A stretch of 32,000 nt of DNA from Staphylothermus marinus F1 (GTDB lineage: Archaea > Thermoproteota > Thermoprotei_A > Sulfolobales > Desulfurococcaceae). Position numbers and translations under genes: made by a program. The stretch lies in NCBI RefSeq assembly GCF_000015945.1, contig NC_009033.1, forward strand, positions 1,170,001 through 1,202,000, written 5' to 3'. Below, one piece after another: positions 1,466-28,387 of the stretch (position 1 is its first letter; every line of letters begins with the position of its first letter). Under the pieces are notes generated by a model. The model made no database searches. It saw only the letters and a list, made by a program, of their open reading frames with translations, and was not told the origin of the DNA.

Positions 1466-1939
1466 ATGGTTGTTTTACGGCCTGAAGATATTAAATCCTT
1501 AATTGGTTTATCTGATGAATCATTGGATTGTAGTGGAATAAAGCTTACGTTAAAGACTATATATGTTCCTGAGACTGTTGGTGAGCTTAGGGTTGATGGG
1601 AGAGTTCTGCCCGAGTATGAGGAGTTAAGATGTGATCCTATGTGTAGGCTTAGTAGTGGGGCATATATTGTTCGGTACAATGAATATGTGAAGATACCTA
1701 ATGGATACATGGGTCTAGTATTTCCTCGTTCCTCATTGTTGAGAATGGGTGCTACAATATATACGGCAGTATGGGATCCGGGCTATGAAGGCCAGGGGAT
1801 AGGGTTGTTGGCTGTATTTAATAAACAAGGAATAGTTCTCGAAAAGAATGTTCAGTTAGCTCAACTTGTACTATTCAAGATGAGTGGTGAAACCATGTTT
1901 TCATATAAGGGAACATATCTTGGCGAGAAAGAAGCTTAG
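1466..1939 (+). CDS. dut: dUTP diphosphatase of the dCTP deaminase/dUTPase superfamily (short archaeal form, 157 aa)
   Basis: Motifs GLVFPRSSLLRMG and VWDPGYEGQGIGLL are typical of the family. GAGGT lies 8 nt before ATG 1466; the track ORF starts at TTG 1439. Confidence 0.8.
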   Translation: MVVLRPEDIKSLIGLSDESLDCSGIKLTLKTIYVPETVGELRVDGRVLPEYEELRCDPMCRLSSGAYIVRYNEYVKIPNGYMGLVFPRSSLLRMGATIYTAVWDPGYEGQGIGLLAVFNKQGIVLEKNVQLAQLVLFKMSGETMFSYKGTYLGEKEA

Positions 1940-2823
1940 TATCTTTTATATCTGATACGAGTTATAGAGTATAGCTTTAATAATCTAAGCTTCTTATACA
2001 TAGCATCTTTTAATCCCTTAATCTCGATATATGGTGTTCTGGTCTTAGCCAAGACTGTCTTAGTTTTTATTATATGGGTCTTAACAGCTCTATAGTATTC
2101 GCTCACCATTGTTTTTAATTCTGAACCTAGTTTTTCTAGATCATAGAATACATGGTATCCATCTAAGCTCGGAGGATTCAGTTCGAGCATTGTAGATACA
2201 AGTACTATGCCTAAACCAGTATTCATGGCGTGGGTTGTTGTTGCTAATACTTCGAATTCTATTGGATAATGTGCATAGTCTGTAATTAATAATAGTGTTT
2301 CTCTATTTCTAAGATTTTTAACGTAGTTCGAGAGTTTGATTAGGTCAATGCTTCCACTAGGATCTACTTTACATATAGTATTTAGTGAAAAATTAATTGC
2401 TTCTAAAGGATTTAGCCCATGTTTTATCAAGGGTTTTTCTCCATGTAAAATTATCAAATCAATTATATCTCCCAGACTATGAGCTATGCTTAGAAACCCT
2501 GTAAGCACATATATAGCTGATTCTATCTTGTCACCATATAGCATTGATTTAGAATAATCTAAGACAACAATGTTATTTACTAGTCTCTCCAATAAATGTT
2601 CTTTAACCATTAATCTATAATCACCGTCAGGCTTAATCATTCTAGCAGATGCTCTCCAATCTATGAACCTAATATCGTCTCCCGGAGAATACTCTCTTAA
2701 ATCAACATATTCAAAGCCAGGACCCTTAATCCTAGAAGGTATTACACCATACATTAGATTACTAAAATGAGCTCTAGACAGTTTTGATGCTAAACTTGCT
2801 CTTCTACATATCCTTGTAGGCAT
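1936..2823 (-). CDS. DUF58-family protein (vWA-like MoxR partner)
   Basis: Carries the DUF58 signature YSPGDDIRFIDWRASARM and a MIDAS-like VVLDYSKSM. It is divergent from the MoxR operon across an 84-nt spacer. Confidence 0.8.
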   Translation of the reverse strand: MPTRICRRASLASKLSRAHFSNLMYGVIPSRIKGPGFEYVDLREYSPGDDIRFIDWRASARMIKPDGDYRLMVKEHLLERLVNNIVVLDYSKSMLYGDKIESAIYVLTGFLSIAHSLGDIIDLIILHGEKPLIKHGLNPLEAINFSLNTICKVDPSGSIDLIKLSNYVKNLRNRETLLLITDYAHYPIEFEVLATTTHAMNTGLGIVLVSTMLELNPPSLDGYHVFYDLEKLGSELKTMVSEYYRAVKTHIIKTKTVLAKTRTPYIEIKGLKDAMYKKLRLLKLYSITRIRYKRY

Positions 2824-2907
2824 TTCTTCTCAGCTGTCAAGATTTTAAATCATAACCATTTATTTCAGATATACTATTTACCCACTATATATGTAGTATT
2901 TATCACG

Positions 2908-3768
2908 GTGATATGTTTGCAGAAATATTATTCTTATAGAGAAGTTATTGATGCTAAAATATATGATAGTACGGGTCTATATTTTGGAGATTTATGTGGT
3001 TTCTCAATAAATGAGAAACCCTTGTTAAAAGCATGTCTTAAATTCAATGTTGGCGATATGGTACCGGATATTAATAGGCTTAAGGGGTTACTGGAAGAAA
3101 GGGGTCTAGAGATCCCGCAGGATCTTACGCTGGAAGAGCTAGTATTGACAGCTAGGAATGAGGGTTTAGAGATTCCTATGAAGAAAGTTGTTTCGAAAGT
3201 AGAGTTTGTAAAGGCTTTTATCGACTTGGATAATGTGTTGTTGATTGATGTGGTTTATAGAAGGGTTTATAGAGGTAATTCGAGAATAGCTGTTATCCTC
3301 CTTAAATCTCCTCGAGAAGCAAAATATAGGGGTCTCCCCCTCCCAATAAATAATCCCTACATTGAATTAATAGATAAGACGATAGGTAAATTAGTGGTTA
3401 GCACTAGTAACGGGATAATAGGATATGTTAGTGAAGTAGTTTTTTCGCCTGGAAAAGTTGGGTTGAGAATTGAATCCGAGAATTATAGGAGTGGAGTAAT
3501 ATTGTGGAATAATTTCTTATCCATTCTTGAAACAAGAGGATTTAGTGAATTAGGAAATTTATTAAGAAACAATATTGGAGAACATGAAAGACTTGATCTC
3601 CACTTGTATGGATACATATATCATTTACTAGAAACATATAAGGCTCCAAGTCAAGTATTTGAACTGCTTAATTCTAATCTAGAATTTGAAGAATTACTTG
3701 TAGAGAAATACCAGGATATTGAATGGGATAATATATTGAAAATTGGTGATATAATCATAGCTAAATAA
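2908..3768 (+). CDS. Hypothetical protein with two PRC-barrel-like segments, immediately upstream of MoxR
   Basis: 286-aa ORF. The segments EVIDAKIYDSTGLYFGDLCGFSINEKPLLKACL and IGKLVVSTSNGIIGYVSEVVFSPGKVGLRIE resemble the PRC-barrel pattern. There is an internal RGLEIPQ / EGLEIPM duplication. The start could be TTG 2917, 5 nt after GGTGAT. Confidence 0.6.
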   Translation: MICLQKYYSYREVIDAKIYDSTGLYFGDLCGFSINEKPLLKACLKFNVGDMVPDINRLKGLLEERGLEIPQDLTLEELVLTARNEGLEIPMKKVVSKVEFVKAFIDLDNVLLIDVVYRRVYRGNSRIAVILLKSPREAKYRGLPLPINNPYIELIDKTIGKLVVSTSNGIIGYVSEVVFSPGKVGLRIESENYRSGVILWNNFLSILETRGFSELGNLLRNNIGEHERLDLHLYGYIYHLLETYKAPSQVFELLNSNLEFEELLVEKYQDIEWDNILKIGDIIIAK

Positions 3769-3780
3769 GAGGTTTAAACA

Positions 3781-4824
3781 ATGGATATAGATGAGATAAG
3801 TGAAAAAATAAATATGGTTATAAAGGAGATTCATAAAGCAATAATCGGCTATGATTATGAATTGAAGCTTCTTCTAGCATCACTCCTATCCGATGGACAT
3901 GTATTATTAGAAGGTGTTCCAGGCATTGCTAAAACAACTATTGCAAGAGCACTGGTTAGAGTATTAGGTCTTGAGGAGAGAAGGAAATACTTCATAGAGA
4001 ATATACCATTTACAGGATTTTCACGTATACAATTCACACCTGATCTTATGCCAAGCGATATAACGGGTTCTCTAATATTTAACCCTGTAACCAGAGAATT
4101 TGAGCCAAGACTTGGCCCTATATTTTCATATATCGTATTAGCTGACGAGATAAACCGTGCAACACCTAGAACACAATCAGCAATGCTTCAAGCAATGCAG
4201 GAGAGAGAAGTAACCATAGGTGATAAAACATATAAGCTTGAATACAAGGATAAAGGTAAGTTCTTCTTTGTAATAGCCACCGAGAACCCGATCGAGCAAG
4301 AAGGAACATATCCATTACCAGAGGCACAACTTGACCGCTTCATGATGAGAATAATTATGGGTTATCCAAAAAGTTTAGAGGAAGAAAAGAACATCTATAA
4401 ATTACATGCATATAGAATTGTTGAGCCAGTAGAGGATCTAGAAAAAATAGTTACACCGGACTGGGTGGTTGAAGCACAAAAAACAATAAGTAAGGAAATC
4501 ATGGTTTCCGACACCATGCTAGACTATATTGCACGGATAATTAGAGCAACTAGGCCCGAGATACTAAAAAGTATTAAGAAATACTTTGAATTAGGAGCAA
4601 GCCCCAGAGCAGGTATAATGCTAGTAAAAGTATCCAAAGCACTAGCAGCTATTAGAGGTAGTGATAAAGTAGAATATGTTGACCTTGAAAAAGCTTTATT
4701 CCCAGTTCTTAACCACAGAGTTATACCAAACATCGATCTTGTAATAGAGTATGGTGGAGACTTCGAGGCTAGGATGAGAGTGATAAGGGAAGGACTAAAG
4801 CATGCGGTCGAAGCTGTTACGTAG
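3781..4824 (+). CDS. MoxR-like AAA+ ATPase
   Basis: Walker A LLEGVPGIAKTT, the motif RIQFTPDLMPSDITG, and Walker B/sensor VLADEINRATPRTQSAMLQAMQEREVTI. AAGAGGT lies 8 nt upstream of the ATG. Confidence 0.9.
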   Translation: MDIDEISEKINMVIKEIHKAIIGYDYELKLLLASLLSDGHVLLEGVPGIAKTTIARALVRVLGLEERRKYFIENIPFTGFSRIQFTPDLMPSDITGSLIFNPVTREFEPRLGPIFSYIVLADEINRATPRTQSAMLQAMQEREVTIGDKTYKLEYKDKGKFFFVIATENPIEQEGTYPLPEAQLDRFMMRIIMGYPKSLEEEKNIYKLHAYRIVEPVEDLEKIVTPDWVVEAQKTISKEIMVSDTMLDYIARIIRATRPEILKSIKKYFELGASPRAGIMLVKVSKALAAIRGSDKVEYVDLEKALFPVLNHRVIPNIDLVIEYGGDFEARMRVIREGLKHAVEAVT

Positions 4825-4846
4825 TAATGTTTCAGCGGTGTAATAA

Positions 4847-5707
4847 ATGATAATATTTGATAACATAACTATGCAGGATCTTCTAGGTAGATCATATAAG
4901 TTATTCTTCCACATACCAACCCCAAGCATCACACTCATTATTACCCCCGCACTTTTCAATAAAACTCTTCTAGCAAACTATATTTTAGGAAATAAGAAAC
5001 CTTTTATCGGAAATATTGTTTCAAGAATAAAAATACAGGGAGTGAAAGGATTATTCATTCCAGAGCTAGCGCAAGGAAAGTCATTAATTTTAGACGAGAT
5101 ATTAACTATTGATGAAAAAGATGATACATTATATTCTGAACTACTTAACTTACTTAGACAATACGGGTACAAATTAGACAATAATCCTTTGATCATAAAG
5201 AATATTCCTAAGCCCCTATTATACTTAATTAGTACAATCTATGTTCTGAGGAAATCCGGGAACTTAACAGTACTTATAGAGCCTTTTAAAGAGTTGGATG
5301 AAATGCTTGGGTCAAGACTAGTCATGGAGATCTATGAGAAGAGAAGTAAGGGAAATACAATAGTGATTATTTCTTCCAACAAGAGTCTCATTGATAATAT
5401 AAACTATGAGCACTTAGTAATTATAAGGAGAGATGGCAAGATCTTCGAGACTAGTACTGGAGCTATCACCCTAAAAAATATTTTAAAAGAAACCATTCCA
5501 TTAGAAATAATTGCTGAAAAGAATAGCTTATCTGAACTGTTATCATTAAAGTGTTTAAAGGGAATAATTACTCTTAATAAGAACATATTTTATGTTTTTA
5601 TAGAAAAGTCTTTATATAGAACATGTTTATATCACCTAGTTAATCTACAACGGAAAAGAATAATTAGGAAAATGAGAGTTGTTAAACAGAGTTTTATTGA
5701 GGAATGA
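4847..5707 (+). CDS. ABC-type (ABC-2/DrrA-like) ATPase homolog with eroded catalytic motifs
   Basis: Collinear with ABC ATPases. P-loop position ITPALFNKT (versus GPNGAGKT), Q-loop LAQ, signature position NIPKPL (versus LSGGQ), Walker B position LTVLIEPFKELD (versus LLILDEPTxGLD), switch position IISSN (versus H). The C-terminal tail ends QSFIEE. Confidence 0.65.
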   Translation: MIIFDNITMQDLLGRSYKLFFHIPTPSITLIITPALFNKTLLANYILGNKKPFIGNIVSRIKIQGVKGLFIPELAQGKSLILDEILTIDEKDDTLYSELLNLLRQYGYKLDNNPLIIKNIPKPLLYLISTIYVLRKSGNLTVLIEPFKELDEMLGSRLVMEIYEKRSKGNTIVIISSNKSLIDNINYEHLVIIRRDGKIFETSTGAITLKNILKETIPLEIIAEKNSLSELLSLKCLKGIITLNKNIFYVFIEKSLYRTCLYHLVNLQRKRIIRKMRVVKQSFIEE

Positions 5708-5713
5708 TCATAT

Positions 5714-6313
5714 TTGAGGATTAATGGTGGTCAACTGATTTTATATATATTAGCGTCCCTTATTGGGGGCATGCTAGCTTTTATTCCTTTCACATATATT
5801 GTTCCACAAATGTTCTTTGGAGAATTAATTTTTCTCCACATAGTATTCATTCTAGTAATATATATTGAGTTATCTAGGATAATCGAGTGGTTTGAGGGAT
5901 TAGATAAGCTTGTCTATATTAATTCTGATGAGTCTAGCAGGATGAAAATGTTCAAGAAAGTCATTTCTATAATTACTGATAACTTATTAGTTTTTTCATT
6001 AGTTATACTTATCCCATGGATAATTATTCGTGGACAGTATCTTTCAAACTATATTTTCATAGGCTATTTCCTATCAATTTTTATATTAATAAATACTTTA
6101 TCAACACTTATCATGTTGATTAATATGGCGTTTATAAAAGATAAGTTAATTTCTATTTTACTGATATTTTCCACAGAGATCGTAATTATTTTGTCTATGC
6201 TTAATAGGTTAAATCAGATATTTAATTATGATCTCCTCTATCCAGTATCTTTACTCATATCTTCGCTGACTTTATTATTTATTGTCTACTATGGGTGGAA
6301 TAAATGGATCTGA
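5714..6313 (+). CDS. Polytopic membrane protein (about 6 hydrophobic segments), possible permease partner of the ABC-like protein
   Basis: TTG start 9 nt after GAGGAA and 6 nt after the previous stop. There are six long hydrophobic runs, for example LILYILASLIGGMLAFIPF and YIFIGYFLSIFILINTLSTLIMLI. Confidence 0.6.
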   Translation: MRINGGQLILYILASLIGGMLAFIPFTYIVPQMFFGELIFLHIVFILVIYIELSRIIEWFEGLDKLVYINSDESSRMKMFKKVISIITDNLLVFSLVILIPWIIIRGQYLSNYIFIGYFLSIFILINTLSTLIMLINMAFIKDKLISILLIFSTEIVIILSMLNRLNQIFNYDLLYPVSLLISSLTLLFIVYYGWNKWI

Positions 6314-7167
6314 AGCATTTATCGTTAATATTTTTTATTATCGCCTTAATTTGGTCGTTACTCTATCTCTTTGGCTCTCATGGATTTGTTTTCTATTCTT
6401 CGGAACTAACCGCTGTGGACAGGGGATATAATATTGTTTATTTAAATGATTATTCTCCAATACGTATATACATATATAATATTTATCAACTACACGGTGG
6501 AGGCAATATTAGAAACGATATAGTAATTAATTATCATGTTAAAAATCTAACTTATGCCTCATTACCTATAGTTAATATAAGGATCAAGTATTTCCTCAGC
6601 AATTATACTCCAATAGAACCCCCCTCTACTATTCTAACATATATGGATTATGTATCTCTATATGAGGGAAAAGTTAATCCTGTTCTAGTAGGGATGGGTT
6701 TAGAGGATAAACATATAGTTTTAGAAAATGTTCGGTCAAAATATCTTGTTGTAGTAGTTGTTCTCAGTATTAGACAGGATATAATAGTTGATTTATCAAA
6801 ATATGTGCCTCCACTAACATATTATCCCAGTCCCCCGCCTCAGCCAGACATATTTGCATACATTGTGAAGAGATCCTTTAATAATTCATACTATGAAACA
6901 ATGCTTTTGTATCTAGCTAAGAAAATATATGAAAATACTGGATCTCTAAGTGTTTTTCAGGAACACGTATTAACAAATAAAAACATTAGATTATCAAGCA
7001 TTCTTATTGTATGGATATTATCAATAACTTTTATTGAAGCATATGATTACAAATTCGTATTTAAACTGTTTAGAGAGTTGATTTATAAAGCAGTGATCTC
7101 AGGATCATATTTGCGAAGAAAACTAAGAAGGTTGCTAAAATATACGGTTCGACAACATAGTTCTTAA
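6304..7167 (+). CDS. Bitopic membrane protein with a large ectodomain, hypothetical
   Basis: ATG overlaps the upstream gene by 10 nt and follows GGGTGGA. N-terminal TM LSLIFFIIALIWSLLYLF, Y/I/V/N-rich middle, proline patch YYPSPPPQPD, second TM LSSILIVWILSITFI, and a basic tail. Confidence 0.55.
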   Translation: MDLKHLSLIFFIIALIWSLLYLFGSHGFVFYSSELTAVDRGYNIVYLNDYSPIRIYIYNIYQLHGGGNIRNDIVINYHVKNLTYASLPIVNIRIKYFLSNYTPIEPPSTILTYMDYVSLYEGKVNPVLVGMGLEDKHIVLENVRSKYLVVVVVLSIRQDIIVDLSKYVPPLTYYPSPPPQPDIFAYIVKRSFNNSYYETMLLYLAKKIYENTGSLSVFQEHVLTNKNIRLSSILIVWILSITFIEAYDYKFVFKLFRELIYKAVISGSYLRRKLRRLLKYTVRQHSS

Positions 7168-8068
7168 CATCGATTTTATAGTTTATATTACTTGTCAAAA
7201 TATAGTTTCCAGCCTTTGATACTGTTTTCTCAGCGAGTTTTTCGAATATATTGATTAGATTATTTGTTTGTTTTACATTATAGAATTGACCCTTCGTGAT
7301 ATTTGCTATTTCTCGTAGTCTCTGCTTAGCCATTATGTTCTCGTAGATATTCATTCCCGGTGTTTCGATGAAGATAGGGTATATTGTTATATTGTATCTA
7401 GCACATTTATATACTACTTCTCTATATAAGGGGGTGTCTTGAGCAAAAGGTAGGCCGTCAGTTACAAATATTATTGTTGGAGATAAGTTGAATTCGGCAA
7501 AGGGGACTAACCATTCATATGCTATTTCTAGTGGCTTACTATATATTGTTCCGCCGAAAGCTTTTATTTCTCCAAGCTTCTTATATAGAAGCTCCTGATC
7601 ACTTGTTGGGGGTATAGCTATTCTTACGTGGTCATTAAACGTTATTAGGCCAATTAATACATAGTCTATTGTTTGATCAATAAATTTTTTTACAGCGTTA
7701 ACTGCTGTTATGATTTTATCGCCTTTCATGCTGCCAGATGTATCTAAAACAATTACTACAGGGGGTTTTCTCTGCAAGCTAATCTTGGCTTCAAGTGTTT
7801 GTGTGGTCTTCACATATTTGGGTATTATAGTGTATGGTAGTGTTAGCGAAAACATTATTAATACAATTACTGTGGTGGCTAATGCTATGTTCAAATACCA
7901 TTTGATACTATGTTGTTTTCTAATATAGGACGAAATATACTGTGTTAACGGATGATTAAAAGAATAAATTTTGCCTAGAACCCTTCTTCTTCCCCATCTT
8001 AATAATACATACATAGCGAACAGGATTAACGGTATGATATAAATTATTATAGGGTATTCAAGCATCAA
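7070..8068 (-). CDS. TM-anchored von Willebrand factor A protein (BatA/BatB-like)
   Basis: BatA_N-like N-terminus LEYPIIIYIIPLILFAMYVLLRWGRRR. MIDAS VVIVLDTSGSMKG ... GGT ... FVTDG. C-terminal hydrophobic segment YILATFLVFFANMIL. Confidence 0.8.
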   Translation of the reverse strand: MMLEYPIIIYIIPLILFAMYVLLRWGRRRVLGKIYSFNHPLTQYISSYIRKQHSIKWYLNIALATTVIVLIMFSLTLPYTIIPKYVKTTQTLEAKISLQRKPPVVIVLDTSGSMKGDKIITAVNAVKKFIDQTIDYVLIGLITFNDHVRIAIPPTSDQELLYKKLGEIKAFGGTIYSKPLEIAYEWLVPFAEFNLSPTIIFVTDGLPFAQDTPLYREVVYKCARYNITIYPIFIETPGMNIYENIMAKQRLREIANITKGQFYNVKQTNNLINIFEKLAEKTVSKAGNYILTSNINYKIDVKNYVVEPYILATFLVFFANMILRSLLYKSTL

Positions 8069-8071
8069 TGT

Positions 8072-9013
8072 CTAGTACCCCTCAATACGTGATGCTAGAA
8101 ATAAAACTAAGCTCGCAACTAACAAGTAAATTGTTGGATATGGATAGACTACTTCTTTCGAAACCTTCACTTCTAATAGTTTCTTAGATATAAATGCTTC
8201 CAACCTCATCTGTCTAGCAGCATCTTCCGTCAACTTATTCAGTAATTTCTCAGTGAACTGATTAATGTTTATAACATATATATTAGAAGCCGTAAGCTCT
8301 TCGACTAATTGGTCGGCTCGTTTATCTAATCCTATTCTAACAAATAATACTGGATATCCAGACTTGTTTATTGAAACTATTTCATCATATGGGTCTCCGC
8401 CCTCATTATATGCTCCATCACTAACTATAACTATTATAGCTGGATACTGTGATGCGGTAACATATGAGTATGCATAAGCTAGTGCCGCGCTTAGATCAGA
8501 ATATCTTTTGTCGGGGGAAAGCTCCAATAATTTGGGGTGACAAAACGTTATGTTTCCTAGACAAATTTTTCTAGGATATTCTGAGAATCCAATGATCAAT
8601 AATTTATCTTTAGGTGATAAATAATTCATATACCTATAGGTAAAATTCAAAGCTCTAACAAATCTTGTAATGTTGGTTCCATCAGTATACTGCATGCTTT
8701 TTGATTCATCTATTAATAAAACGTGTAATGCTGTTATATTATACATTACTCTCTTGATCTCTGTTTCTTCAGGGTTTCCATGTACTGTAAACTGTATTGT
8801 TTGAACAGTAACTGGAAGCGTTGATGCTAGGAGTAATAATATTATTGATGCTATTTTGGAGGCTTGAATTATATGCCATAATATGTTATCTCTCTGATTT
8901 AATAGTTTTAGAAGGGTTCTTCTCCTAGAATAAACATATATGTATAAGAGTGTCAGTATTGGTATAATAATTAACATAACATTGGTCATTTCTGGATGCA
9001 ATAGTTTAATCAT
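8072..9013 (-). CDS. TM-anchored von Willebrand factor A protein (BatA/BatB-like), second copy
   Basis: N-terminus MIKLLHPEMTNVMLIIIPILTLLYIYVYSRRR. MIDAS LLIDESKSMQ ... VIVSDGAYNEGGDP. C-terminal TM IYLLVASLVLFLA. ATG 9013 is preferred because GGGAG lies 8 nt upstream; the track start is GTG 9040. Confidence 0.8.
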   Translation of the reverse strand: MIKLLHPEMTNVMLIIIPILTLLYIYVYSRRRTLLKLLNQRDNILWHIIQASKIASIILLLLASTLPVTVQTIQFTVHGNPEETEIKRVMYNITALHVLLIDESKSMQYTDGTNITRFVRALNFTYRYMNYLSPKDKLLIIGFSEYPRKICLGNITFCHPKLLELSPDKRYSDLSAALAYAYSYVTASQYPAIIVIVSDGAYNEGGDPYDEIVSINKSGYPVLFVRIGLDKRADQLVEELTASNIYVININQFTEKLLNKLTEDAARQMRLEAFISKKLLEVKVSKEVVYPYPTIYLLVASLVLFLASRIEGY

Positions 9014-9866
9014 CTTCCATACTCCCAGAGTATCCTCCACTTATTCCTCCAGGATTCTCGGTATTTGTCATATTGGTTTTCTGTTTCTTAACAATTTCTC
9101 CCATTGAAAGCTTTGTTAGGAACATTGATATTTGCCTAGCGAATGGCTTTAACTTCTCCATATCAACTTGTTTCGTAATGGATTCTGCAAGTTTTAATAA
9201 GGTTAGATTTGTATTGTTGTTTTCAATGTTTTCTATATTAGATGATAGGATTTCCATTAATTTTATGTATTCTAGGATAGTATTGAGAGTATCATTGATA
9301 ACCATGATCGAGTAATTTATTGTAGTATTGTGATCGTCGAGCAATATGCCTTTTTCTCTTACATATTTTAAAATTTTCAGTGATTCGTTAAGTTCATGCA
9401 CAATATTGTAGAGACGTAGTTTCATATCGTAATATATGTTTAGGGATTTCTTTATGTTTAAGTTGCTGAGTTCATCAAGGCTTTTCTCCATACCGGCCCA
9501 TATAATAGGTAGATCCATTGTAACATTAAATAGTTTCCTAGAAACAATTGTTATATTTTCATATGTAATTACAGTTACTAATTCTCTATACGGTGTTCCC
9601 GGAGTATTCAGTACTCTTGTTTTCTCTTCTTTAATGTATTTATGAAGCTTTAATAGATCAGCAGGATCTACATCATAGCTAGGATTCTTATATTGAATAT
9701 GGGAACTTGTCTTATTCAAGTAAGATATTGATTCTTGATAAGCACGATCTAGGCTATAATTTGAGCTGGAAATACTTGTTTTGATAAGCATGCTGTAAAA
9801 TATAAAACCAAGTATTATAGCTACTATTATAGTGGCTAAGATGCTTGTTCTATTTATTTTAAACAT
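9006..9866 (-). CDS. N-terminally anchored, sequon-rich helical surface protein, hypothetical; first gene of the vWA operon
   Basis: TM ILATIIVAIILGFIFYSMLI, at least 11 N-x-S/T sequons in the ectodomain, and a G/S-rich acidic tail NPGGISGGYSGSMEDD. ATG 9866 follows GAGAGGA; the track start is TTG 9884. Confidence 0.55.
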   Translation of the reverse strand: MFKINRTSILATIIVAIILGFIFYSMLIKTSISSSNYSLDRAYQESISYLNKTSSHIQYKNPSYDVDPADLLKLHKYIKEEKTRVLNTPGTPYRELVTVITYENITIVSRKLFNVTMDLPIIWAGMEKSLDELSNLNIKKSLNIYYDMKLRLYNIVHELNESLKILKYVREKGILLDDHNTTINYSIMVINDTLNTILEYIKLMEILSSNIENIENNNTNLTLLKLAESITKQVDMEKLKPFARQISMFLTKLSMGEIVKKQKTNMTNTENPGGISGGYSGSMEDD

Positions 9867-10091
9867 TCGTCCTAGTCCTCTCAAATAGACCTGTCTAAGA
9901 TATGGGTTATATTAAGATACTAATAACACTAACTCATTTACGTATCGTAGAATATTGTTAAGTTGTTATATAGTAGTTATAAAGTACAACGTTTTATCAC
10001 AAATAATGCTACATTATAGAACTTTATTCGGACATACATGTGCCTGTAAGAGGGTAAAAACGGGATAATAGTTATACTTGTGAAAGTGAGG

Positions 10092-13621: not shown

Positions 13622-13700
13622 TGGTGCGGCGGCCGGGATTTGAACCCGGGATCTCCGGCTTGGGGGGCCGGCGTCCTAGTCCAGGCTAGACGACCGCCGC
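13622..13700 (-). tRNA. tRNA-Gly(CCC), CCA encoded
   Basis: Hand-folded cloverleaf: acceptor GCGGCGG/CCGCCGC, D arm GTCT..GGAC, anticodon stem CCGGC/GCCGG with loop CCCCCAA, T arm CCGGG-TTCAAAT-CCCGG, then A-CCA. Confidence 0.9.
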
Positions 13701-14496: not shown

Positions 14497-16065
14497 GTGG
14501 TATTTTTGAGTATTAGAAATAATGATTCAATTGAAAAGTATACACCTCTCATTTTAGTAAAGTCTCAAACGGGGCTAAGGACGCTTAGCGAGGAAGAAGT
14601 TATAGGGTATATAATGTTTCAAGCTGAAACAAATAGGAAAAAACCAGGATTCTTTAAAAGAAAGGGTGAACATATAAGGCTTGTATCTTTACTATATTAT
14701 CCATTCATAGTTAAGAGTTACAGGGAGAGAATGGCCTTAATAATCGATCCAGTTAAGAAATCTAGTATAGAATTTGAATATGATTCAATTAATAAAGAAG
14801 TTATAAATAAAGAGTTAGAGTCGTTAAAAGATCTCACAGGCAAGGAATTTCTGGATCAAATGGTTAAGCTTGAAAAAATAGTGGAAAGCATTGTTTCGGG
14901 TAAGGAATATATTGATAAAAGAAAATATGTGATCGAATCAATTGTTAACGATGCAATAATGATAAAAGATCTAAGAATATTTATTGAAAACACTGTTAAC
15001 TATGAAATACCAGGTGGAAAAATAGAATATGAAAAAATCAATATAGATGAGATAATAGAGAAAGTTCAAAAAATTCTTGAAGAAACCCATTCTATACTAA
15101 CCTATATAAATGATTTCATAAAAAGACTCGACGGCTACGTTGATAAATGGAAAGAAAATATCGAGCTAGTATTTTCTGAGAAAATGAAGGAAATAGATGT
15201 AAAGATCGAAGAAACCAAATTAGAGGTGCAGAAAAACATTAATTTATTACGAAAGAAGCTTGAGGAAGAAATAAATGTTATAAAAGAGAGACATAAACCA
15301 ACAATTGAAACTATAGAGAAAAGGATCGATGAGATCAAGAGTGAAATTAAAACGATCGAGGAAGAAATAGAAAAAGCAAAACAATATGGTAAAGATACAA
15401 GTGATTTAAAGAAGAAATTGAATGATCTCAAGAAAACATTAAAGGATCTTGAAGAAGAGTTGAGAGAAGCTAATAAAAGAATGGAGGATGAAATTGAATC
15501 TGTTCAAAAACGATACAAGGAAATGATTGAGAGTGAAAACGAGAAAATAAAAAGACTGTATAATGAGAGAGAGAAGTTGCGTCTAGAGCTCGAAGCTCTG
15601 GAAAAAGAAGCTAATACAAGATACGATTCTATTAGGAAGAATCTGATGAAGTATAGAGATAAAATTATGGAAATTGAGAAAAAAATCTTAGGTATATCCG
15701 TTCTACTACCAACTAGCGGAGAAGGAAAATACTTGGTCCCATTAGCAGTTATAATGTACGGTAAAAACAGCGAGACAAGATACATGACAATAACACCTTT
15801 AATGTTTGAACATACAGGAAGAATAGCGTCGAGAATTAGAATTTACAGTGTAGAGTCAATAAACAAACACTTAGCCTGGATAATCAACATTCTTGAACAA
15901 CCACGCATTAGGGCTCAATTAGATGAAAACAATCTATTCAGGATCGTAGCGCTTGAGCGGATAGAAATAGGCTTATCTAGACTTTCAGATCTCGGTATAC
16001 TTAGTAGGGGAGAAATTAGAAAAATCATAAAGAATTTGAAGGATCAAATAGAAATGGTTGTTTAA
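14497..16065 (+). CDS. Large coiled-coil protein, hypothetical
   Basis: 522 aa: an N-terminal domain of about 100 aa, about 300 aa of E/K/I-rich heptad-like sequence, and a C-terminal domain of about 120 aa. The start could be TTG 14506, 5 nt after AGGTGG. Confidence 0.65.
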   Translation: MVFLSIRNNDSIEKYTPLILVKSQTGLRTLSEEEVIGYIMFQAETNRKKPGFFKRKGEHIRLVSLLYYPFIVKSYRERMALIIDPVKKSSIEFEYDSINKEVINKELESLKDLTGKEFLDQMVKLEKIVESIVSGKEYIDKRKYVIESIVNDAIMIKDLRIFIENTVNYEIPGGKIEYEKINIDEIIEKVQKILEETHSILTYINDFIKRLDGYVDKWKENIELVFSEKMKEIDVKIEETKLEVQKNINLLRKKLEEEINVIKERHKPTIETIEKRIDEIKSEIKTIEEEIEKAKQYGKDTSDLKKKLNDLKKTLKDLEEELREANKRMEDEIESVQKRYKEMIESENEKIKRLYNEREKLRLELEALEKEANTRYDSIRKNLMKYRDKIMEIEKKILGISVLLPTSGEGKYLVPLAVIMYGKNSETRYMTITPLMFEHTGRIASRIRIYSVESINKHLAWIINILEQPRIRAQLDENNLFRIVALERIEIGLSRLSDLGILSRGEIRKIIKNLKDQIEMVV

Positions 16066-19503: not shown

Positions 19504-19575
19504 GGTGGATAGTTCATTTTTTAAAGGAAATAACTATAAGTGAATAGTAGAGTGAAAGTTTGGGTGTTGTACTCA

Positions 19576-20829
19576 ATGATCTACGATGATAAACCTAGTA
19601 CATGGAAGATTATTGAGGAAGAACTAAACAAGCCGACTATTTTTAAGAGCAGAGAGAGCCTGACACCTGAATATATTCCTGATAATCTACCCCACCGTGA
19701 AAAAGAAATTAAAGCATTGGTTTCAGCATTTAAACATTTAATTACTAGTCCAGGTAGCTTCTCGCAGAGAGTGTTAATTGTTGGCAGTGTAGGAACTGGA
19801 AAAACCGTGACAGCCAGGGTTTTCGGAAGAGACTTTACAAGAGCCGCTAAGATTAAAGGATACAATATCAGGTATGTACATATAAACTGTCACCGTAACC
19901 GTACACTTTATAATGTTGTAACCGAAATAGCTAGGCAACTAGAAATACCTTTACCATCAAGAGGATTATCTGTTAAAGAAATGTATGATGCTATCCTAGG
20001 ATATCTTGATGAAAGTGATACTTATGCTATAGTTACTCTAGACGAATTCCATTACTTTGCAAGTATTGCGGGCAGTGATGCAGTATACTTTATCGTTAGA
20101 ACATATGATGATATAAATGCTAGTATAAAAAGACTAAACTTTATCTTTATATCTCTTGATACATCTAAGCTATCATTACTAGATAGCACTACTGAAAGCT
20201 ACTTATTAAGACACATGATTAAGCTTAAACCATATACTTCAAGTGAATTATTTGATATTTTAAAATATAGAGCCTCTCAAGCATTCTATGAAGGAATAGT
20301 TGACGATGAGATTCTAAGATTTATAGCTGATTATGAAGGTAGTGATCGCGGTGGCGGAGGAAACGCTAGACACGCGATCGAAATATTGTTGTTGGCTGGT
20401 GATATAGCTGAGAGTGAAGGAGCAGATAAAATACAGTTAGATCATGTACGTAAAGCTATTATGAAGACCTCTAGAGAAATTATAAACATATCAGAATCCA
20501 TCCTATATAGCCCCGTCCACGAACTAATAATTCTATGGGCGATTATAAGGCTTCTCCGTAGGACTGGGAGACCATTTGTTAAAATGGGCGAGGTGGAGAA
20601 GGAGTATGAAGTGCTCTGCGAAGTTCTAGGCGAACAACCACGTAGACATACACAGATCTATGAATACATTATGAATCTTAAGAAAGCCGGGGTTATAGAT
20701 GCTAGAACTAGTGGTAAGGGTTTACGGGGTAGAACAACGCTGATAAGCATTCATTATGGACCCCTTGATCTATTTGAGAAGCATGTTGAAGACCTAATAT
20801 ATAGGAGGCTTGGTGTTAGTAAGAGATGA
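19576..20829 (+). CDS. cdc6: Orc1/Cdc6 replication initiator
   Basis: LPHREKEI, Walker A GSVGTGKT, Walker B VTLDEFHY, sensor GGGGNARHAIEIL, and a C-terminal winged helix. ATG 19576 is preferred because GGGTG lies 9 nt upstream; the track start is GTG 19540. Confidence 0.9.
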   Translation: MIYDDKPSTWKIIEEELNKPTIFKSRESLTPEYIPDNLPHREKEIKALVSAFKHLITSPGSFSQRVLIVGSVGTGKTVTARVFGRDFTRAAKIKGYNIRYVHINCHRNRTLYNVVTEIARQLEIPLPSRGLSVKEMYDAILGYLDESDTYAIVTLDEFHYFASIAGSDAVYFIVRTYDDINASIKRLNFIFISLDTSKLSLLDSTTESYLLRHMIKLKPYTSSELFDILKYRASQAFYEGIVDDEILRFIADYEGSDRGGGGNARHAIEILLLAGDIAESEGADKIQLDHVRKAIMKTSREIINISESILYSPVHELIILWAIIRLLRRTGRPFVKMGEVEKEYEVLCEVLGEQPRRHTQIYEYIMNLKKAGVIDARTSGKGLRGRTTLISIHYGPLDLFEKHVEDLIYRRLGVSKR

Positions 20830-21032: not shown

Positions 21033-22304
21033 TTATCTCTTAAGTCTTCTATAATAAGCTAATACCTCACTACTCTTAGGTCCTGCAAGCCATTTAATCA
21101 TTTCCTCCGTTAATCCATAACCCAATGCGATTTTAGCCGCATATTTGGGAGCATGTGTAAATATTATTTTCAGGAAAGGTATAACATCTCTTTTAATAGT
21201 TGCTCTACTTGTTAATAGTCTAGGAGCCAGTGTCATTGCTATGCCTTCTCTAACTTCTCTACTTCTCTTAGTTTGTGCTAATAATTGTAATCTTTTTGGA
21301 GAACGAAATGCTTTCCACTTATACCTATATATTTTCCTAGCAAATGCTACTCCAGGCCCCATCATATCGAAAACATAGCTTAAAAGATCCCATGAACCAC
21401 TCTTCCGAATCCTACCCATGTATACGTCTGCTCTACTAAGTGCTTCATATGCTCTCCAAATCTCTTCTGGATCATCGTAATAGGTTGGTATGTGCTCGTT
21501 TATCCAGATCATCATTGTTTCATAATCTATGTTTGCCTGAGATATTGCAGATTTAGCTTGAAATATATATCTTGCATTAAACATTTTCTGTAATGCTTCG
21601 AATGGTGCATATTCTCTAGTCCTATACGCCGATAATTCCCTTACCCAGTTAAGAGTTACTCTGCCAAATCCTTCAGCTATTGCTTGTAGATCATTTATTG
21701 CACTCCTAAGATCTCCTTCGCTTCTCCGAGCTATTTCTCTTAAAGCTGCATCTTCGCATTCTAGTTTTTCGAGTTGACATATTCTTTTTAGAACTATTAT
21801 TACATCTCTCTCACTTAGTCTCTTAAAAGCAATCATTAATGAAGCGTCTCTGAGAGGCTTAAGTTTTTGATCCCAGGGGTTATTAGCCGTCATAACTACA
21901 GGGTAACGTGTTATTTCTAGTAAGTGTAGTATAGCATCTATAGCTCCTCTATCAGCTGTTCCGCTTATGCCATCGACCTCGTCCAATAATATGATTTTTC
22001 CACGGGCGAAAAGGCTTCTCATAAAAGCAGCTGTTTTAGCTATTCTCTCAATATCTTGTCTTCTCCTAAAATCACTAGCATTCATCTCTACTATTTCTAA
22101 GCCATACTCGTTAGCTGCTGCTTCGACTAGACTAGTTTTACCACAACCCGCCGGACCATATAGTAGAGCGGCTTTCTTCGATGGTTTGCCTTTAAGCCAT
22201 GATTCAAGCCATTGGATAAATTGTTTTTTAGCGGAATCCTGATTAACTACATCTGCGATTTTCTTTGGCCTATACTTTATTATCCATGGAATTCTACGGG
22301 GCAT
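21033..22304 (-). CDS. rfcL: Replication factor C large subunit
   Basis: [14 protein letters not shown], Walker [12 protein letters not shown], Walker B ILLDEVDG. It lies 20 nt downstream of rfcS. Confidence 0.9.
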
Positions 22305-22324
22305 TCCGGATACCTTTGTTTAGT

Positions 22325-23314
22325 TTATGGTTTTAGTTTCTTTCCAAGGAATGCTAGCCTTGCTAGGAAAGCATTTAGCTGTATTTCATCATCAGCTCCT
22401 TCAACTAGTCTAAACTGTATTTCTCCTGCTAAGTCTGCTATAATTATTTTGAATTCATCTGGTATCTTGATATCTGTGCTGAATATTTCTCTATGAACCT
22501 GTTTAATAACGTCGACCCCGCTTAATCCATAATTGATCATTAGTTCTCTCAGCTTCTCGCGTGCATCGTTAAAGTTGCCTGCTAATGCTAACTGTATCAT
22601 TTGTCTTATTTCTCTGGGATGAGCTAATCCAACTACTTTATAGACGCTATCAACTGTTACCTTACCAAGTGCTGCAGCTGCTTGTAATATGTTGATTGCT
22701 CTCCTCATATCTCCCTCTGATAAATCATGTATTGCTTCCAGAGCTTCTTCATCTATCTCAACTTTCTCCTGTTCAGCTATCCATTTAAGCCTTGATATAA
22801 CATCTTCTTTTTTCAGCGGTGCAAACCTGAATACTGCGCATCGACTCTGGATTGGCTCAATTATTTTGCTTGGATAGTTAGCTATTAATATGAATCTTGT
22901 TGTTGCAGTATACATTTCCATAAGTCTACGAAGAGCTTGTTGTGCGTCTGCAGTCATATTGTCTGCTTCATCCAACAGGACTATTTTGAATGGAATATTA
23001 GCTGCAACCCTTGTTCTAGCGAATTCTTTTACCTTGCTACGTATAACATCTATCCCTCTCTCATCGCTAGCGTTCAGCTCCAACATGTATTGCCTATAGT
23101 TTTCTCCAAATAAGTCATGGGCTAAACAATGAGCAGCTGTAGTTTTACCAGTACCTGGAGGACCGGCGAATAGTAGGTGAGGCATATTTCTTTCCTTAAC
23201 AAACTGTTTGAGACGAGATACTATTTCTTCTTGATCAACTATTTCATCCAATGTTTTAGGCCTATACTTTTCAGCCCATAATAACTCAGCTATAACTTCT
23301 CGAGAGCTACTCAT
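22325..23314 (-). CDS. rfcS: Replication factor C small subunit
   Basis: WAEKYRPKTLDEIV, GPPGTGKTT, LLDEADNMT and QSRC. ATG 23314 is preferred because AGGTG lies upstream; the track start is GTG 23326. Confidence 0.92.
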   Translation of the reverse strand: MSSSREVIAELLWAEKYRPKTLDEIVDQEEIVSRLKQFVKERNMPHLLFAGPPGTGKTTAAHCLAHDLFGENYRQYMLELNASDERGIDVIRSKVKEFARTRVAANIPFKIVLLDEADNMTADAQQALRRLMEMYTATTRFILIANYPSKIIEPIQSRCAVFRFAPLKKEDVISRLKWIAEQEKVEIDEEALEAIHDLSEGDMRRAINILQAAAALGKVTVDSVYKVVGLAHPREIRQMIQLALAGNFNDAREKLRELMINYGLSGVDVIKQVHREIFSTDIKIPDEFKIIIADLAGEIQFRLVEGADDEIQLNAFLARLAFLGKKLKP

Positions 23315-23345
23315 ATGTTGACACACCTAACAAATATCTATGTCT

Positions 23346-24056: not shown

Positions 24057-27000
24057 TTGACATATACATTGGAAAAGGAAAAAACAGAACCAGATCTTGT
24101 AACAAGGTTTAAAAGGTTTCTATGGGATTTCAGAGATCGAAGAACAGGCATGTTTAAATACCGTGAAAGAATAAGCCATATGGCTCTAATGGGTCAGAGA
24201 AGCCTATTAATTGATTTCAACGACATAACATTGTTCGATAGAGGACTAGCACATATTATTGAAAACAATCCTGACACAGCCATAGAAGCAGCTAGTATAG
24301 CGATTAAGGAGCTAATGAGGAGAGAAAACCCAGAATATGCTGAGTCCGTAGATAAGTTTTATCCAAGATTCCGTAACCCAAGCAAAGTGTTAAGGATCAG
24401 GGAATTAACAAGCGAGTATATAGGGAAATTTGTCGCTGTAGAAGGTATATTGACTAGGCTGACAAGAGTTGAAGCTAGACTGGTTAAGGCTGTTTTTAAA
24501 CATGCAGAATGTGGAGCAGAGTTTGAATGGCCTGAAGAAGGAGAGATGGGGGAGAGAATAGAGAAGCCATCATACTGCCCTATATGTGGGAAAACAGGTA
24601 AGTTCCAGTTATTATTGAATAAGTCTAGATTTATTGATTGGCAAAAAATAGTTGTACAAGAAAAACCAGAAGAAATCCCTCCTGGCCAGATCCCAAGAAG
24701 TATTGAGGTTGTTCTTACCGGTGATCTAGTGGATTCAGCGAGACCTGGTGATAGAGTCTTAGTAACAGGGATACTACGAGTTATGCCCACAAGCTCTGTG
24801 CAGAGAGGTATTGGTAAATCCGTTTTTGGATTCTATCTCGAAGCAAACTATGTTGATGTTCAACAGAAAGTATTGGAGGAAATAGAGATAACGCGTGAGG
24901 ATGAGGACAAAATAAAGGAGTTGGCAAGAGATCCATGGATCAGGGAGAAAATTATAGCAAGCATTGCACCAGCCATTTATGGTCATTGGAACATTAAGGA
25001 AGCAATAGCATTGTTGCTTTTCGGAGGAGTACCTAAATTATTACCTGATGGAACAAGAATACGTGGAGACATACATATATTATTAGTAGGAGACCCAGGT
25101 ACTGCTAAATCCCAAATGCTACAATATACTGCAAAAATCGCCCCCCGCGGAATATATACTAGCGGGAAAGGATCGACAGCTGCTGGTTTAACAGCAAGTG
25201 TTCTCAGAGATAAAGCAACAGGAGAATATTATCTCGAAGCTGGAGCATTGGTATTAGCTGATGGAGGAGTTGCATGTATAGATGAGATAGATAAAATGAG
25301 AGAAGAAGATCGAAGCGCAATACATGAAGCATTAGAACAGCAAAGTTATCATAAAGATTTCAAAATAATGTTGGCAGATGGTAGGAAGGTTAGGATTGGA
25401 GATTTAGTAGATGAGCTGATAGGTAAGAATAGGGAAAAAGTCATTAAGGGTAAGGATACCGAGATACTTTTCGTAGATGACTTATTCCTTCTCTCATACA
25501 ATATGCGTTCAGGAGAACAAGTGCTTGTAAAAGCAGATAGAGTAAGTAGGCATAAAGCACCTGATCAATTTATAAAGTTAAGATTTAGTAATGGAGCAGA
25601 AATAATCGTTACACCAGAACATCCAGTGCTGATAATTAATAATGGAAAAATCAAAACAGTTAGAGCTGATACAGTTCGTAAAGGCACTCTAACCATAGGT
25701 GTGCTAGGTCATAAAATTATTAAAGAAGTAAATGAAGATGACATAATCAATAATATTAGGAGAAAGATCGTATTAGATAAAGAACTTCCATATATTCATG
25801 CCAAAAACATTTCTGAAGCCGTTGAAATGCGTGATCAATTAATGAGTATAGATATACCAACCTTCATTGTTAAACATAAAAACGAGATAAGACTTTATCC
25901 ATCTGGTCCATGTTCTCTAAGAAGACTTCTATTAATGCATGGAGTTGAAGAAGTTGTTTTCAGCGATGAATTACTATATGAAATCATGAACTGCCATTTA
26001 TACCCAGCAACATGGTACGAGCTATTATACTCAATGGGATTAACCAAGATAGCTAAGGAACTAAATGTCTACGACTTTGAAATATTAGCAGGTATTATCA
26101 AAAAAGTTGAGAAAGAAGTAATTATGTTATCCCAGGTTCTCGGATTGAGAAATGAAACACAAACAGAACTGTTACATCTTAAATCACGTAGAGAACTTCT
26201 CATAAGACTTAAGGATAAACTAGACATGTTAAGGAAAAGATTAAAGGATCTTGAAGAAGCATTAGGTAAAGACGCTGTCATTAGAATGATTACTGATGTA
26301 GAAGTAATTAAGAATACGGATTCGGACTGGGTTTATGATATAACTATTGAACCCTACCACTTATTTGTCTCGGACGGTCTCATACTACATAATACTGTTA
26401 GTATTGCCAAAGCAGGCATCGTTGCCAGACTAAATGCTAGAGCATCTGTTCTCGCAGCTGGTAATCCGAAACTTGGAAGATACGATCACTCATTACCAGT
26501 AAGTAAAAACATTGATCTCCCACCACCTATTCTATCAAGATTTGACCTAATATTTATAGTTGAAGATATACCGGAGAAAACCAAAGATACCCTACTAGCT
26601 AAGCATATACTAGATATACATACAGACTATGAGAAAGCAAAACCATTAATCGATACTCAGCTCCTCAAAAAATACATTAGTTATGCAAGAAGATATATTA
26701 GGCCAAAACTAACACAAGAAGCTAAAAAATTGCTTCTAGACTTCTATGTAAACATGAGGCTTTCAGGTGTAAAAGCTAGTAAGGAAGGCCCACCAGCCAT
26801 AGCTATGACACCTAGACAATTAGAAGCATTAATCAGATTATCAGAAGCTCACGCAAAAATGGCTTTAAAAACTAAAGCAACAATTGAGGATGCTGAAGAA
26901 GCTATTCGTTTAATGTATTATAGTTTGAGAAAAGTAGGTTACGATGTTAAATCCGGCAGATTAGATATCGACCTAGTAGAACTAGGTGTTTCTAGAAGTA

Positions 27001-28278: not shown

Positions 28279-28387
28279 TGGGGCCGCCGGGATTTGAACC
28301 CGGGATCACCGGCGCTCTGTGACACCAGGCCTGGCTAGCGGGGTGTCCCCCCAGGCCGGCATCCTAGCCAGGCTAGACTACGGCCCC
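28279..28387 (-). tRNA. tRNA-Pro(GGG) with an intron of about 34 nt; CCA not encoded
   Basis: Acceptor GGGGCCG/CGGCCCC, D arm GTCT..GGAT, anticodon stem CCGGC/GCCGG enclosing 41 nt (CUGGGG + insert + C), T arm CCGGG-TTCAAAT-CCCGG, discriminator A. The insert contains the stem GACACC/GGUGUC. Confidence 0.85.

Follow-up and report, generated by a model that had tools for sequence, protein, structure and literature searches.

Among the prokaryotic gene clusters of unknown molecular function, those encoding MoxR, DUF58, BatA and BatB proteins (Bat operons) belong to the most widespread. Pairs of MoxR and von Willebrand factor A (vWA) proteins are described as chaperone and co-chaperone, and the metal ion-dependent adhesion sites (MIDAS) of vWA domains bind extended or unstructured peptides (PMC7159879). 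For the BatA-like protein BB0173, the vWA domain was experimentally determined to be periplasmic (PMC5700661). In archaea, arCOG01314 (DUF4350, GldG-like) was described together with MoxR and DUF58/vWA proteins as a predicted secretion or membrane-remodelling complex (Makarova, Galperin & Koonin 2015; PMC5898192). The window analysed here is a stretch of 32,000 nucleotides of the genome of Staphylothermus marinus F1 (contig NC_009033.1, positions 1,170,001 to 1,202,000). It carries nine genes, named O1 to O9 in the order of their window coordinates (1936-9884), which encode a Bat-type core of a MoxR ATPase (O3), a DUF58 protein (O1) and two vWA proteins (O7, O8), together with a predicted PRC-barrel protein (O2), a degenerate ABC-type ATPase (O4), the membrane proteins O5 and O6 and the anchored ectoprotein O9. 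The nine genes very probably form one conserved system of this composition, which appears to be an envelope-associated MoxR system specific to Thermoproteota.

With the Bat operons, including Borrelia bb0170-0176 and the Leptospira Bat locus, the locus shares adjacent genes for a DUF58 protein and an ATPase of the MoxR-proper type (AAA_3), and two consecutive vWA proteins with two N-terminal transmembrane (TM) segments, a vWA domain with MIDAS and a C-terminal TM segment. This vWA domain probably lies outside the membrane, as in BB0173 (PMC5700661). Unlike in the Bat operons, no TPR (BatC/E), BatD-like or BatA N-terminal domain match was obtained for the nine proteins with Pfam at E <= 1, in agreement with a preliminary description of this DNA, which had noted the absence of TPR-type BatC-E components. 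The NCBIfam model VWA_BatB_Lepto was matched at E 0.042 and 0.094, far under its 350-bit cut-off. Furthermore, the genes are split into facing units with additional ABC-2, PRC-barrel and ectoprotein partners, and the host is a hyperthermophilic archaeon.

The arCOG01314 system resembles the locus in combining archaeal MoxR and DUF58/vWA proteins with membrane-anchored proteins of large ectodomain, and in a conceptual link to the gliding-motility ABC transporter GldA/F/G: the ABC ATPases found at loci of the present type score best on GldA, and the topology of O6 is GldG-like. In contrast to that system, no Ig-like S-layer or DUF1616 domain was detected in the window block or in three related loci from other lineages (L014, L018 and L021, see below), and no DUF4350 match was found. 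The arCOG01314 system itself lacks a PRC-barrel protein, a vWA pair of BatA/B type and both ABC components (ATPase and permease), and the examples described are mainly euryarchaeal.

The additional partners have relatives of their own. The ABC-2 (type V) exporters GldAFG, DrrAB, PmtCD and NosDFY share with O4-O6 the homology of the nucleotide-binding domain (NBD), a 6-TM protein that is a putative permease in O5, the order ATPase-permease-accessory protein and an ATPase of about 300 amino acids with a C-terminal extension. They differ in that O4 is devoid of the Walker A glycines, LSGGQ, the Walker B Asp and the H-loop His, and in that the module forms part of a MoxR/vWA system here. O2 has the barrel fold of the archaeal cell division proteins CdvA and CdpB1/B2, which are likewise small cytoplasmic adaptors acting at the membrane; with 283 amino acids, more than one barrel and helical inserts, it belongs however to a narrow family of its own and shows linkage to MoxR instead of FtsZ/SepF or ESCRT genes. 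Archaeal PRC-barrel genes often neighbour AAA+ (Cdc48) genes, and MoxR is not mentioned in the corresponding neighbourhood census (10.1101/2023.03.28.534520). Among the papers searched, none linked a MoxR/DUF58/vWA operon with an ABC-2 module or a PRC-barrel protein, and none mentioned PRC barrel and MoxR together. The core is recognisable by its architecture as a Bat-type MoxR operon and the present composition is new, while MoxR systems of the archaeal envelope had already been proposed in general terms.

Recurrence of the nine-gene set

The window is closely syntenic with the genome of Staphylothermus hellenicus, where the counterparts of the nine proteins (CP002051) are 72-95% identical, and all nine genes are under purifying selection, with ratios of non-synonymous to synonymous substitution (dN/dS) of 0.07-0.27. 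At least six contigs of the Staphylothermus clade keep all nine genes in the order of the window (L002/L003, L004, L005/L006, L007 and L009, with L013, L016 and L017 as partial loci), and every contig of this clade recovered via O4, O2 or O6 carries the block with its order unchanged. The flanking genes of L002 and L007 are unlike those of the window. At the clade loci, MoxR is 77-83% identical to that of the window, and the identity of O4, O5, O6 and O9 goes down to 23-43%.

Outside the clade, the set was found in a Pyrodictiaceae metagenome-assembled genome (MAG; L014), a Korarchaeota-labelled MAG (L018/L019) and a Thermofilum-labelled MAG (L021). In L014 the genes stand on one strand in the order O9-like, vWA, vWA, O2-like, MoxR, ABC ATPase, membrane protein, two O6-like genes and DUF58, with a K+-channel-like gene inserted on the other strand between the O2-like gene and MoxR. 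In L018/L019, the ABC ATPase and two unannotated genes converge on vWA-vWA-O9-DUF58; next come O2, an inserted SDR gene and MoxR. L021 shows the order of the window, with toxin-antitoxin pairs inserted between the modules. At these distant loci MoxR is 58-62% and O2 29-33% identical, and the set lies within about 10-12 kb between unrelated flanks. Hidden Markov models (HMMs) built from the Staphylothermus clade recovered O1, O2, O3, O7 and O8 in all three distant loci and O9 in two of the three. HMM or profile comparison establishes orthology outside the clade for six of the nine (O1, O2, O3, O7, O8 and O9), and for O4 it is supported by profile comparison.

A contig scan with MoxR relied on weakly conserved peptide patterns and yielded two loci, L014 and the Bacteroidota locus L015, while a metagenome contig scan with a narrower O2 alignment yielded two close loci only; the wider contexts were drawn from 12 contigs looked up.

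The appearance of the set in four arrangements, between unrelated flanks and with foreign insertions that never disperse it, speaks strongly for a link in function among the nine genes. The preliminary description had considered that the five partners of the core might not be co-conserved with MoxR and the vWA genes, or might belong to well-characterised families with unrelated roles. Neither was observed: the set recurs in at least four arrangements, and all five partner families are without functional annotation. Its suggestion of an archaeal envelope-associated variant of undescribed composition is supported by this recurrence and by the absence of a prior description in the literature searched.

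Some accessory genes were also observed near these loci. The two toxin-antitoxin pairs of L021 (10735-11539 and 14392-15097) are of the DUF3368/UPF0175 kind and of a PIN protein with a small partner, and are located exactly at the boundaries of the three modules; a pair of the DUF3368/UPF0175 type also occurs near the L002 locus. Just downstream of the O9 gene, L002 (15132-16892) and L007 (18428-20043) carry a conserved gene pair, absent from the window, for an HD-like protein (261 amino acids) and a protein with a PA14 domain (about 245 amino acids).

Protein families and membrane sidedness

The four core assignments of the preliminary description (DUF58, MoxR and two vWA proteins) were confirmed via Pfam. 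O3 matched AAA_3 (E 8e-55, 184.7 bits) and AAA_lid_2 (E 8e-14), its nearest solved structure is the MoxR protein 2r44_A (E 2.5e-63), and it can be assigned on sequence grounds to the MoxR-proper type. It is the best conserved of the nine, with 80% identity to L002 and 58-62% to L014, L018 and L021, and its P-loop, GVPGIAKT, differs from the GxxxTAKS variant. O1 matched DUF58 (PF01882, E 6e-13), is without a TM segment, is depleted in N-glycosylation sequons and is predicted to be cytoplasmic; its orthologues in L014, L018 and L021 were recovered at E values around 1e-40. O7 matched VWA_2 (E 2e-15) and VWA (E 1.4e-14), and O8 matched VWA_2 (E 2e-9). By hydropathy scan both show two N-terminal TM segments, the vWA domain and a C-terminal TM segment. 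The same scan reproduced the topologies reported earlier for the 6-TM, bitopic and N-anchored proteins.

The DxSxS motif of the MIDAS is invariant in the vWA proteins of all seven loci compared (DxSGS in O7, D-x-S-K-S in O8). The three motifs quoted in the preliminary description are present in the window, DYSKS in the DUF58 protein and DTSGS and DESKS in the vWA proteins. Its statement that three proteins bear a MIDAS is accurate for the window and cannot be generalised, as DxSxS occurs in O1 in only four of the seven loci.

For O2, which had been called PRC-like, the Pfam PRC match was weak (E 0.068, 13.6 bits against a gathering cut-off of 21.2), and weak PF05239 matches were found in 8 of 39 family members (best E 0.002). 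The AlphaFold2 (AF2) model (mean predicted local distance difference test, pLDDT, 87.4; predicted TM-score, pTM, 0.83) and its Foldseek comparison back the PRC-barrel fold. The top 20 or so matches in the PDB were PRC-barrel proteins only, with probabilities up to 0.99, and included CdpB1/B2, PRC1/PRC2 of A. fulgidus, RimM, CdvA and MTH1859. As the protein consists of several domains, among them more than one barrel, the TM-scores were low and the Foldseek E-values modest (best 6e-3); the family profile gave no significant match against PDB sequences. O2 is thus, according to its model, a tandem PRC-barrel protein, and it is predicted to be cytoplasmic. Its family has an invariant P-R-E-A-x-x-R-G motif and is narrow: 73 representatives were found among 1.84 billion proteins in an exhaustive profile search, and 10 clusters among 5.8 billion proteins in a database search. 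All members are annotated as 'hypothetical', with MAG labels of Staphylothermus, Thermofilum, Thermoprotei and Korarchaeota. The gene of close relatives is directly upstream of MoxR in every locus, with a single gene inserted in two of them.

The description of O4 as an eroded ABC ATPase was confirmed by profile and alignment. Its family profile matched ABC ATPases in the PDB (1sgw at E 3e-7, RLI at about 1e-4), and O4 aligns collinearly over its whole length with the intact L014 ATPase. Relative to the latter, GPNGAGKT is changed to TPALFNKT, LSRGY to IPKPL, LLLLDEPT to TVLIEPF and STH to SSN, which leaves a degenerate Walker A, signature, Walker B and H-loop; no PF00005 match was found via Pfam. 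The family comprises only four clusters among 5.8 billion proteins. A decaying pseudogene was ruled out, as the full-length open reading frame (ORF) is kept in all seven clade members and dN/dS against S. hellenicus is 0.14. O4 shows 26-34% identity where MoxR shows 79-83%, compared with 41-50% for the intact ABC proteins where MoxR shows 56-62%; judged by these identities, O4 evolves faster relative to MoxR than the intact proteins do.

The ABC ATPases of L014, L018 and L021 have intact catalytic motifs (PF00005 at E 2.6e-24 for L014). The family that they match best is GldA (TIGR03522, E 1e-47 to 1e-55, under the equivalog cut-off), with matches to the DrrA subfamily as well, and their nearest solved relatives are the NBDs of the ABCA family and NosF (E 1.6e-41 for the L021 protein against NosF). 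The membrane proteins adjoining them match the ABC-2 permease PmtD (E 5e-5). Because these ATPases are intact and the permeases match PmtD, the ancestral module can be assigned by sequence to the ABC-2 (type V) transporters, with an erosion specific to the Staphylothermus clade. The earlier notion of an inactivated ABC module therefore applies to this clade and does not extend to the three other lineages, where the module is intact.

O5 has six hydrophobic segments by hydropathy scan and occupies the position of the ABC-2 permease. It gave no Pfam match and no detectable similarity to its positional counterparts in L014, L018 and L021, and it is shorter than the permeases (199 amino acids against about 258) and could not be aligned to known ones. 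O6 consists of an N-terminal TM segment, an ectodomain of about 200 amino acids with a Pro-rich stretch, a C-terminal TM segment and a basic cytoplasmic tail; its family forms three clusters among 5.8 billion proteins. No Pfam match and no significant profile match to PDB sequences were found for O6, and neither O6 nor its counterparts in L014, L018 and L021 matched DUF4350 or ABC_transp_aux. In L014 (9257-11243) the O6-like bitopic gene is tandemly duplicated, and both copies (335 and 328 amino acids) retain a Y-D-Y-K motif at the C-terminal anchor.

O9, earlier described as a sequon-rich anchored protein, has one N-terminal TM segment and 12 N-x-S/T sequons against 3.8 expected, a number reached in none of 500 shuffled sequences, and is probably N-glycosylated. 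Its C-terminus carries a conserved G-x-G-[AG]-G-[YR] followed by a terminal Asp-Asp, invariant in the six orthologues examined. A PGF-CTERM-type sorting signal was ruled out by the absence of a C-terminal TM segment and of a basic tail. O9 gave no Pfam match and no significant profile match to PDB sequences; hhalign linked it to its counterparts in L014, L018 and L021 (probability 96.5%, E 9e-10). Over the seven loci, sequons are 1.6-2.6-fold enriched in O6-O9 (2.0-fold in O6, 2.3-fold in O8); fewer than expected occur in O1, O3 and O5, and about the expected number in O2 and O4. From this enrichment and the topology of BB0173, the vWA domains, the O6 ectodomain and O9 would lie outside the membrane, and MoxR, DUF58, O2 and O4 inside.

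In four loci (L002 6099-7103; L007 6886-7884; L008 1352-2350; L013 776-1783), the neighbour of the DUF58 gene encodes a glycosyltransferase of fused Alg14/GT28-C type, about 333 amino acids long. Enzymes of this kind serve the synthesis of the archaeal N-glycan chitobiose, and this neighbour may be relevant to the glycosylated-looking O6-O9; it was not found anywhere in the 32-kb window.

Proposed mode of action and alternative explanations

The system would consist of a core of MoxR, the cytoplasmic DUF58 protein and the two membrane vWA proteins, with MIDAS domains facing outward, and of three modules in place of BatC-E: an ABC-2-type module of the GldA/DrrA class (ATPase, 6-TM permease and bitopic accessory protein), a PRC-barrel protein and an acidic-tailed ectoprotein. 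Outside the cell, the MIDAS sites of O7 and O8 could hold acidic or unstructured peptide ligands, for which the Asp-Asp tail of O9 is the prime candidate, and O7/O8 would assemble with O9 and the O6 ectodomain into a surface complex. Inside, a MoxR hexamer would spend ATP, with DUF58 as vWA-like co-chaperone and O2 as adaptor, and could assemble or remodel the surface complex via those loops and tails that the membrane subunits expose to the cytoplasm. The role of the ABC-2 module might be to export a component or to relay conformational changes through the membrane to O6. O4 of the Staphylothermus clade has lost every catalytic motif yet is conserved, which suggests that it survives as a scaffold and that MoxR is the sole predicted ATPase. 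This specific mechanism is proposed tentatively, and its details may well prove wrong; the reading as a whole, conserved system and mechanism combined, is moderately favoured. A trans-envelope machine, in which the Bat-type unit is mechanically coupled to the ABC-2 scaffold via the PRC-barrel adaptor and MoxR replaces the ABC ATPase as power source in the Staphylothermus clade, is improbable. If it were true, it would reveal a general role of Bat operons, namely a glycoprotein surface complex held by MIDAS capture of an acidic tail.

Several points weigh against this reading of the nine genes. The pairing of the O9 tail with MIDAS sites is one that we purely infer. The link of O4 to the intact ABC ATPases is moderate (hhalign probability 73.5%, E 3e-5 over 253 columns), and the counterparts of O5 and O6 outside the clade were recognised by position and topology alone, with hhalign probabilities of 0.2% and 2.4%, respectively. 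The AF2 model of O6 has a pLDDT of 37.9 (4 sequences), and its likeness to GldG is one of topology alone. Distant O2 paralogues (L020, L022) lie outside any MoxR context, so the linkage to MoxR holds for the core O2 subfamily and not for all relatives. The sampling covers four arrangement types, with three loci outside the Staphylothermus clade and few loci from collection scans, and the distant loci take their taxon labels from MAG binning.

The occurrence of O2-like proteins without MoxR would also suit an ordinary Bat-type MoxR operon that stands beside unrelated neighbours and keeps them by descent in one genus. The same applies to the fact that most loci with the exact order of the window come from one clade, with MoxR at least 73% identical, and that O5 and O6 are without detectable homologues beyond it. 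However, the set recurs in three divergent genomes in three orders, within about 10-12 kb and with insertions and unrelated flanks, and L002 and L007 keep the block despite differing flanks. Adjacency by descent or chance is largely refuted by these loci, and such an operon is the least credible of the explanations considered, with hardly any likelihood left. Fast evolution of O4, O5, O6 and O9, several-fold faster than that of MoxR, could instead indicate a conflict or anti-virus system akin to the MoxR-vWA ternary systems (Kaur et al. 2020), one in which surface receptors would sense invaders and MoxR would deploy an effector. O3 does pass the bpMoxR threshold of Pfam (29.5 bits against a cut-off of 27), but over a region where AAA_3 reaches 184.7 bits, and toxin-antitoxin genes are inserted in the L021 locus. 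Following the definitions of PMC7159879, no VMAP, iSTAND, FtsH, beta-propeller, effector or EAD domain was found with Pfam, and dN/dS values of at most 0.27 give no sign of diversifying selection. The surroundings are housekeeping and replication genes syntenic with S. hellenicus and not a variable island; together with PADLOC matches that were all insignificant, these flanks also led to the rejection of a defence island. A conflict system is accordingly judged very unlikely.

Slightly better placed, though still unlikely, is the maturation of an extracellular metalloprotein, in which a metal or cofactor would reach the outside of the cell through the ABC-2 module, in the manner of NosDFY and N2O reductase, and would be inserted by MoxR with vWA/DUF58 proteins, in the manner of NorQ/NorD and CoxD/E/F. 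Insertion of metals or cofactors is frequent among the characterised MoxR-vWA pairs (NorQD, PMC9976466), the MIDAS itself is a metal site, and NosF is among the closest solved relatives of the L021 ATPase. ABCA and GldA/DrrA score as well as or better than NosF, however, and no candidate metalloenzyme client is conserved beside the block in the four arrangements. The motif loss in the ATPase of the clade is also hard to reconcile with active metal export.

The proposed envelope-associated system ties the Bat core to three testable partners, the ABC-2 module, the PRC-barrel protein and the acidic-tailed surface protein, and offers interaction hypotheses for the O9 tail and MIDAS, for O2 and MoxR, and for O4-O5-O6 and the vWA proteins. 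With the ABC module active in some and naturally inactivated in other sister lineages, it provides a natural experiment on a non-hydrolysing ABC ATPase. With O2, the archaeal PRC-barrel proteins, hitherto tied to cell division, gain a family linked to MoxR.

Gene layout and other features of the window

All nine ORFs were confirmed at the coordinates given in the preliminary description, in three units that face each other (Table 1).

Table 1. Units, genes and intergenic region of the nine-gene locus in window coordinates
Feature	Position	Strand	Length (amino acids)	Basis
Unit 1 (O1)	1936-2823	minus
Unit 2 (O2-O6)	2908-7167	plus
Unit 3 (O7-O9)	7070-9884	minus
O1, DUF58 protein	1936-2823	minus	295	PF01882
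O1/O2 divergent intergenic region	2824-2907	.		sequence read directly
O2, predicted PRC-barrel protein	2908-3768	plus	286	AF2 model and Foldseek
O3, MoxR AAA+ ATPase	3781-4824	plus	347	AAA_3 and AAA_lid_2
O4, degenerate ABC-type ATPase with C-terminal extension	4847-5707	plus	286	family profile
O5, 6-TM membrane protein	5714-6313	plus	199	hydropathy scan
O6, bitopic protein	6304-7167	plus	287	hydropathy scan
O7, vWA protein, BatA/BatB architecture	7070-8068	minus	332	VWA_2/VWA
O8, second vWA protein, BatA/BatB architecture	8072-9040	minus	322, from GTG at 9040	VWA_2
O9, N-anchored sequon-rich protein	9006-9884	minus	292	TM segment and sequon count

Comparison with orthologues suggests other starts for three genes: O2 probably begins at TTG 2917 (283 amino acids, the length of its orthologues), O8 probably at ATG 9013 (313 amino acids; orthologues 313-315) and O9 probably at ATG 9866 (286 amino acids, matching its orthologues). 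On the plus strand, O2-O6 are separated by gaps of 12, 22 and 6 nt followed by the 10-nt overlap of O5 and O6. On the minus strand, the vWA genes O7 and O8 are 3 nt apart, and O8 and O9 overlap by 8 nt if O8 starts at ATG 9013. The spacings reported earlier were right except for the first plus-strand gap, which had been given as 13 nt. A feature absent from that report is the convergence of O6 (plus) and O7 (minus) with a 98-nt overlap of their 3' ends (7070-7167). L002, L004, L005, L007, L009 and L018 have a similar overlap (about 50-115 nt), which suggests overlapping antisense 3' transcripts or a common termination region. In the intergenic region between O1 and O2, A/T-rich TATA-like boxes are located about 20-25 nt upstream of both starts and represent putative archaeal promoters of near-leaderless transcripts.

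The G+C content of the window is about 33%, and the flanks of the block are housekeeping genes encoding dCTP deaminase, Cdc6, RFC and MCM. The MCM helicase gene (24057-27200, plus strand, 1047 amino acids) contains an intein, with an Intein_splicing domain at residues 437-779 that interrupts the P-loop domain. It adjoins Cdc6/Orc1 (19540-20829) and the large and small subunits of RFC (21033-23326) in a replication-gene neighbourhood. An ordinary tRNA-Gly(CCC) is located at 13622-13700, and a 109-nt tRNA (28279-28387, minus strand), found via Rfam with 53 bits and missed by ARAGORN, is probably an intron-containing archaeal tRNA. A further ORF of 522 amino acids (14497-16065, plus strand), with a sub-threshold apolipoprotein-like repeat match (34 bits against a cut-off of 90), probably encodes a long helical or coiled-coil protein.

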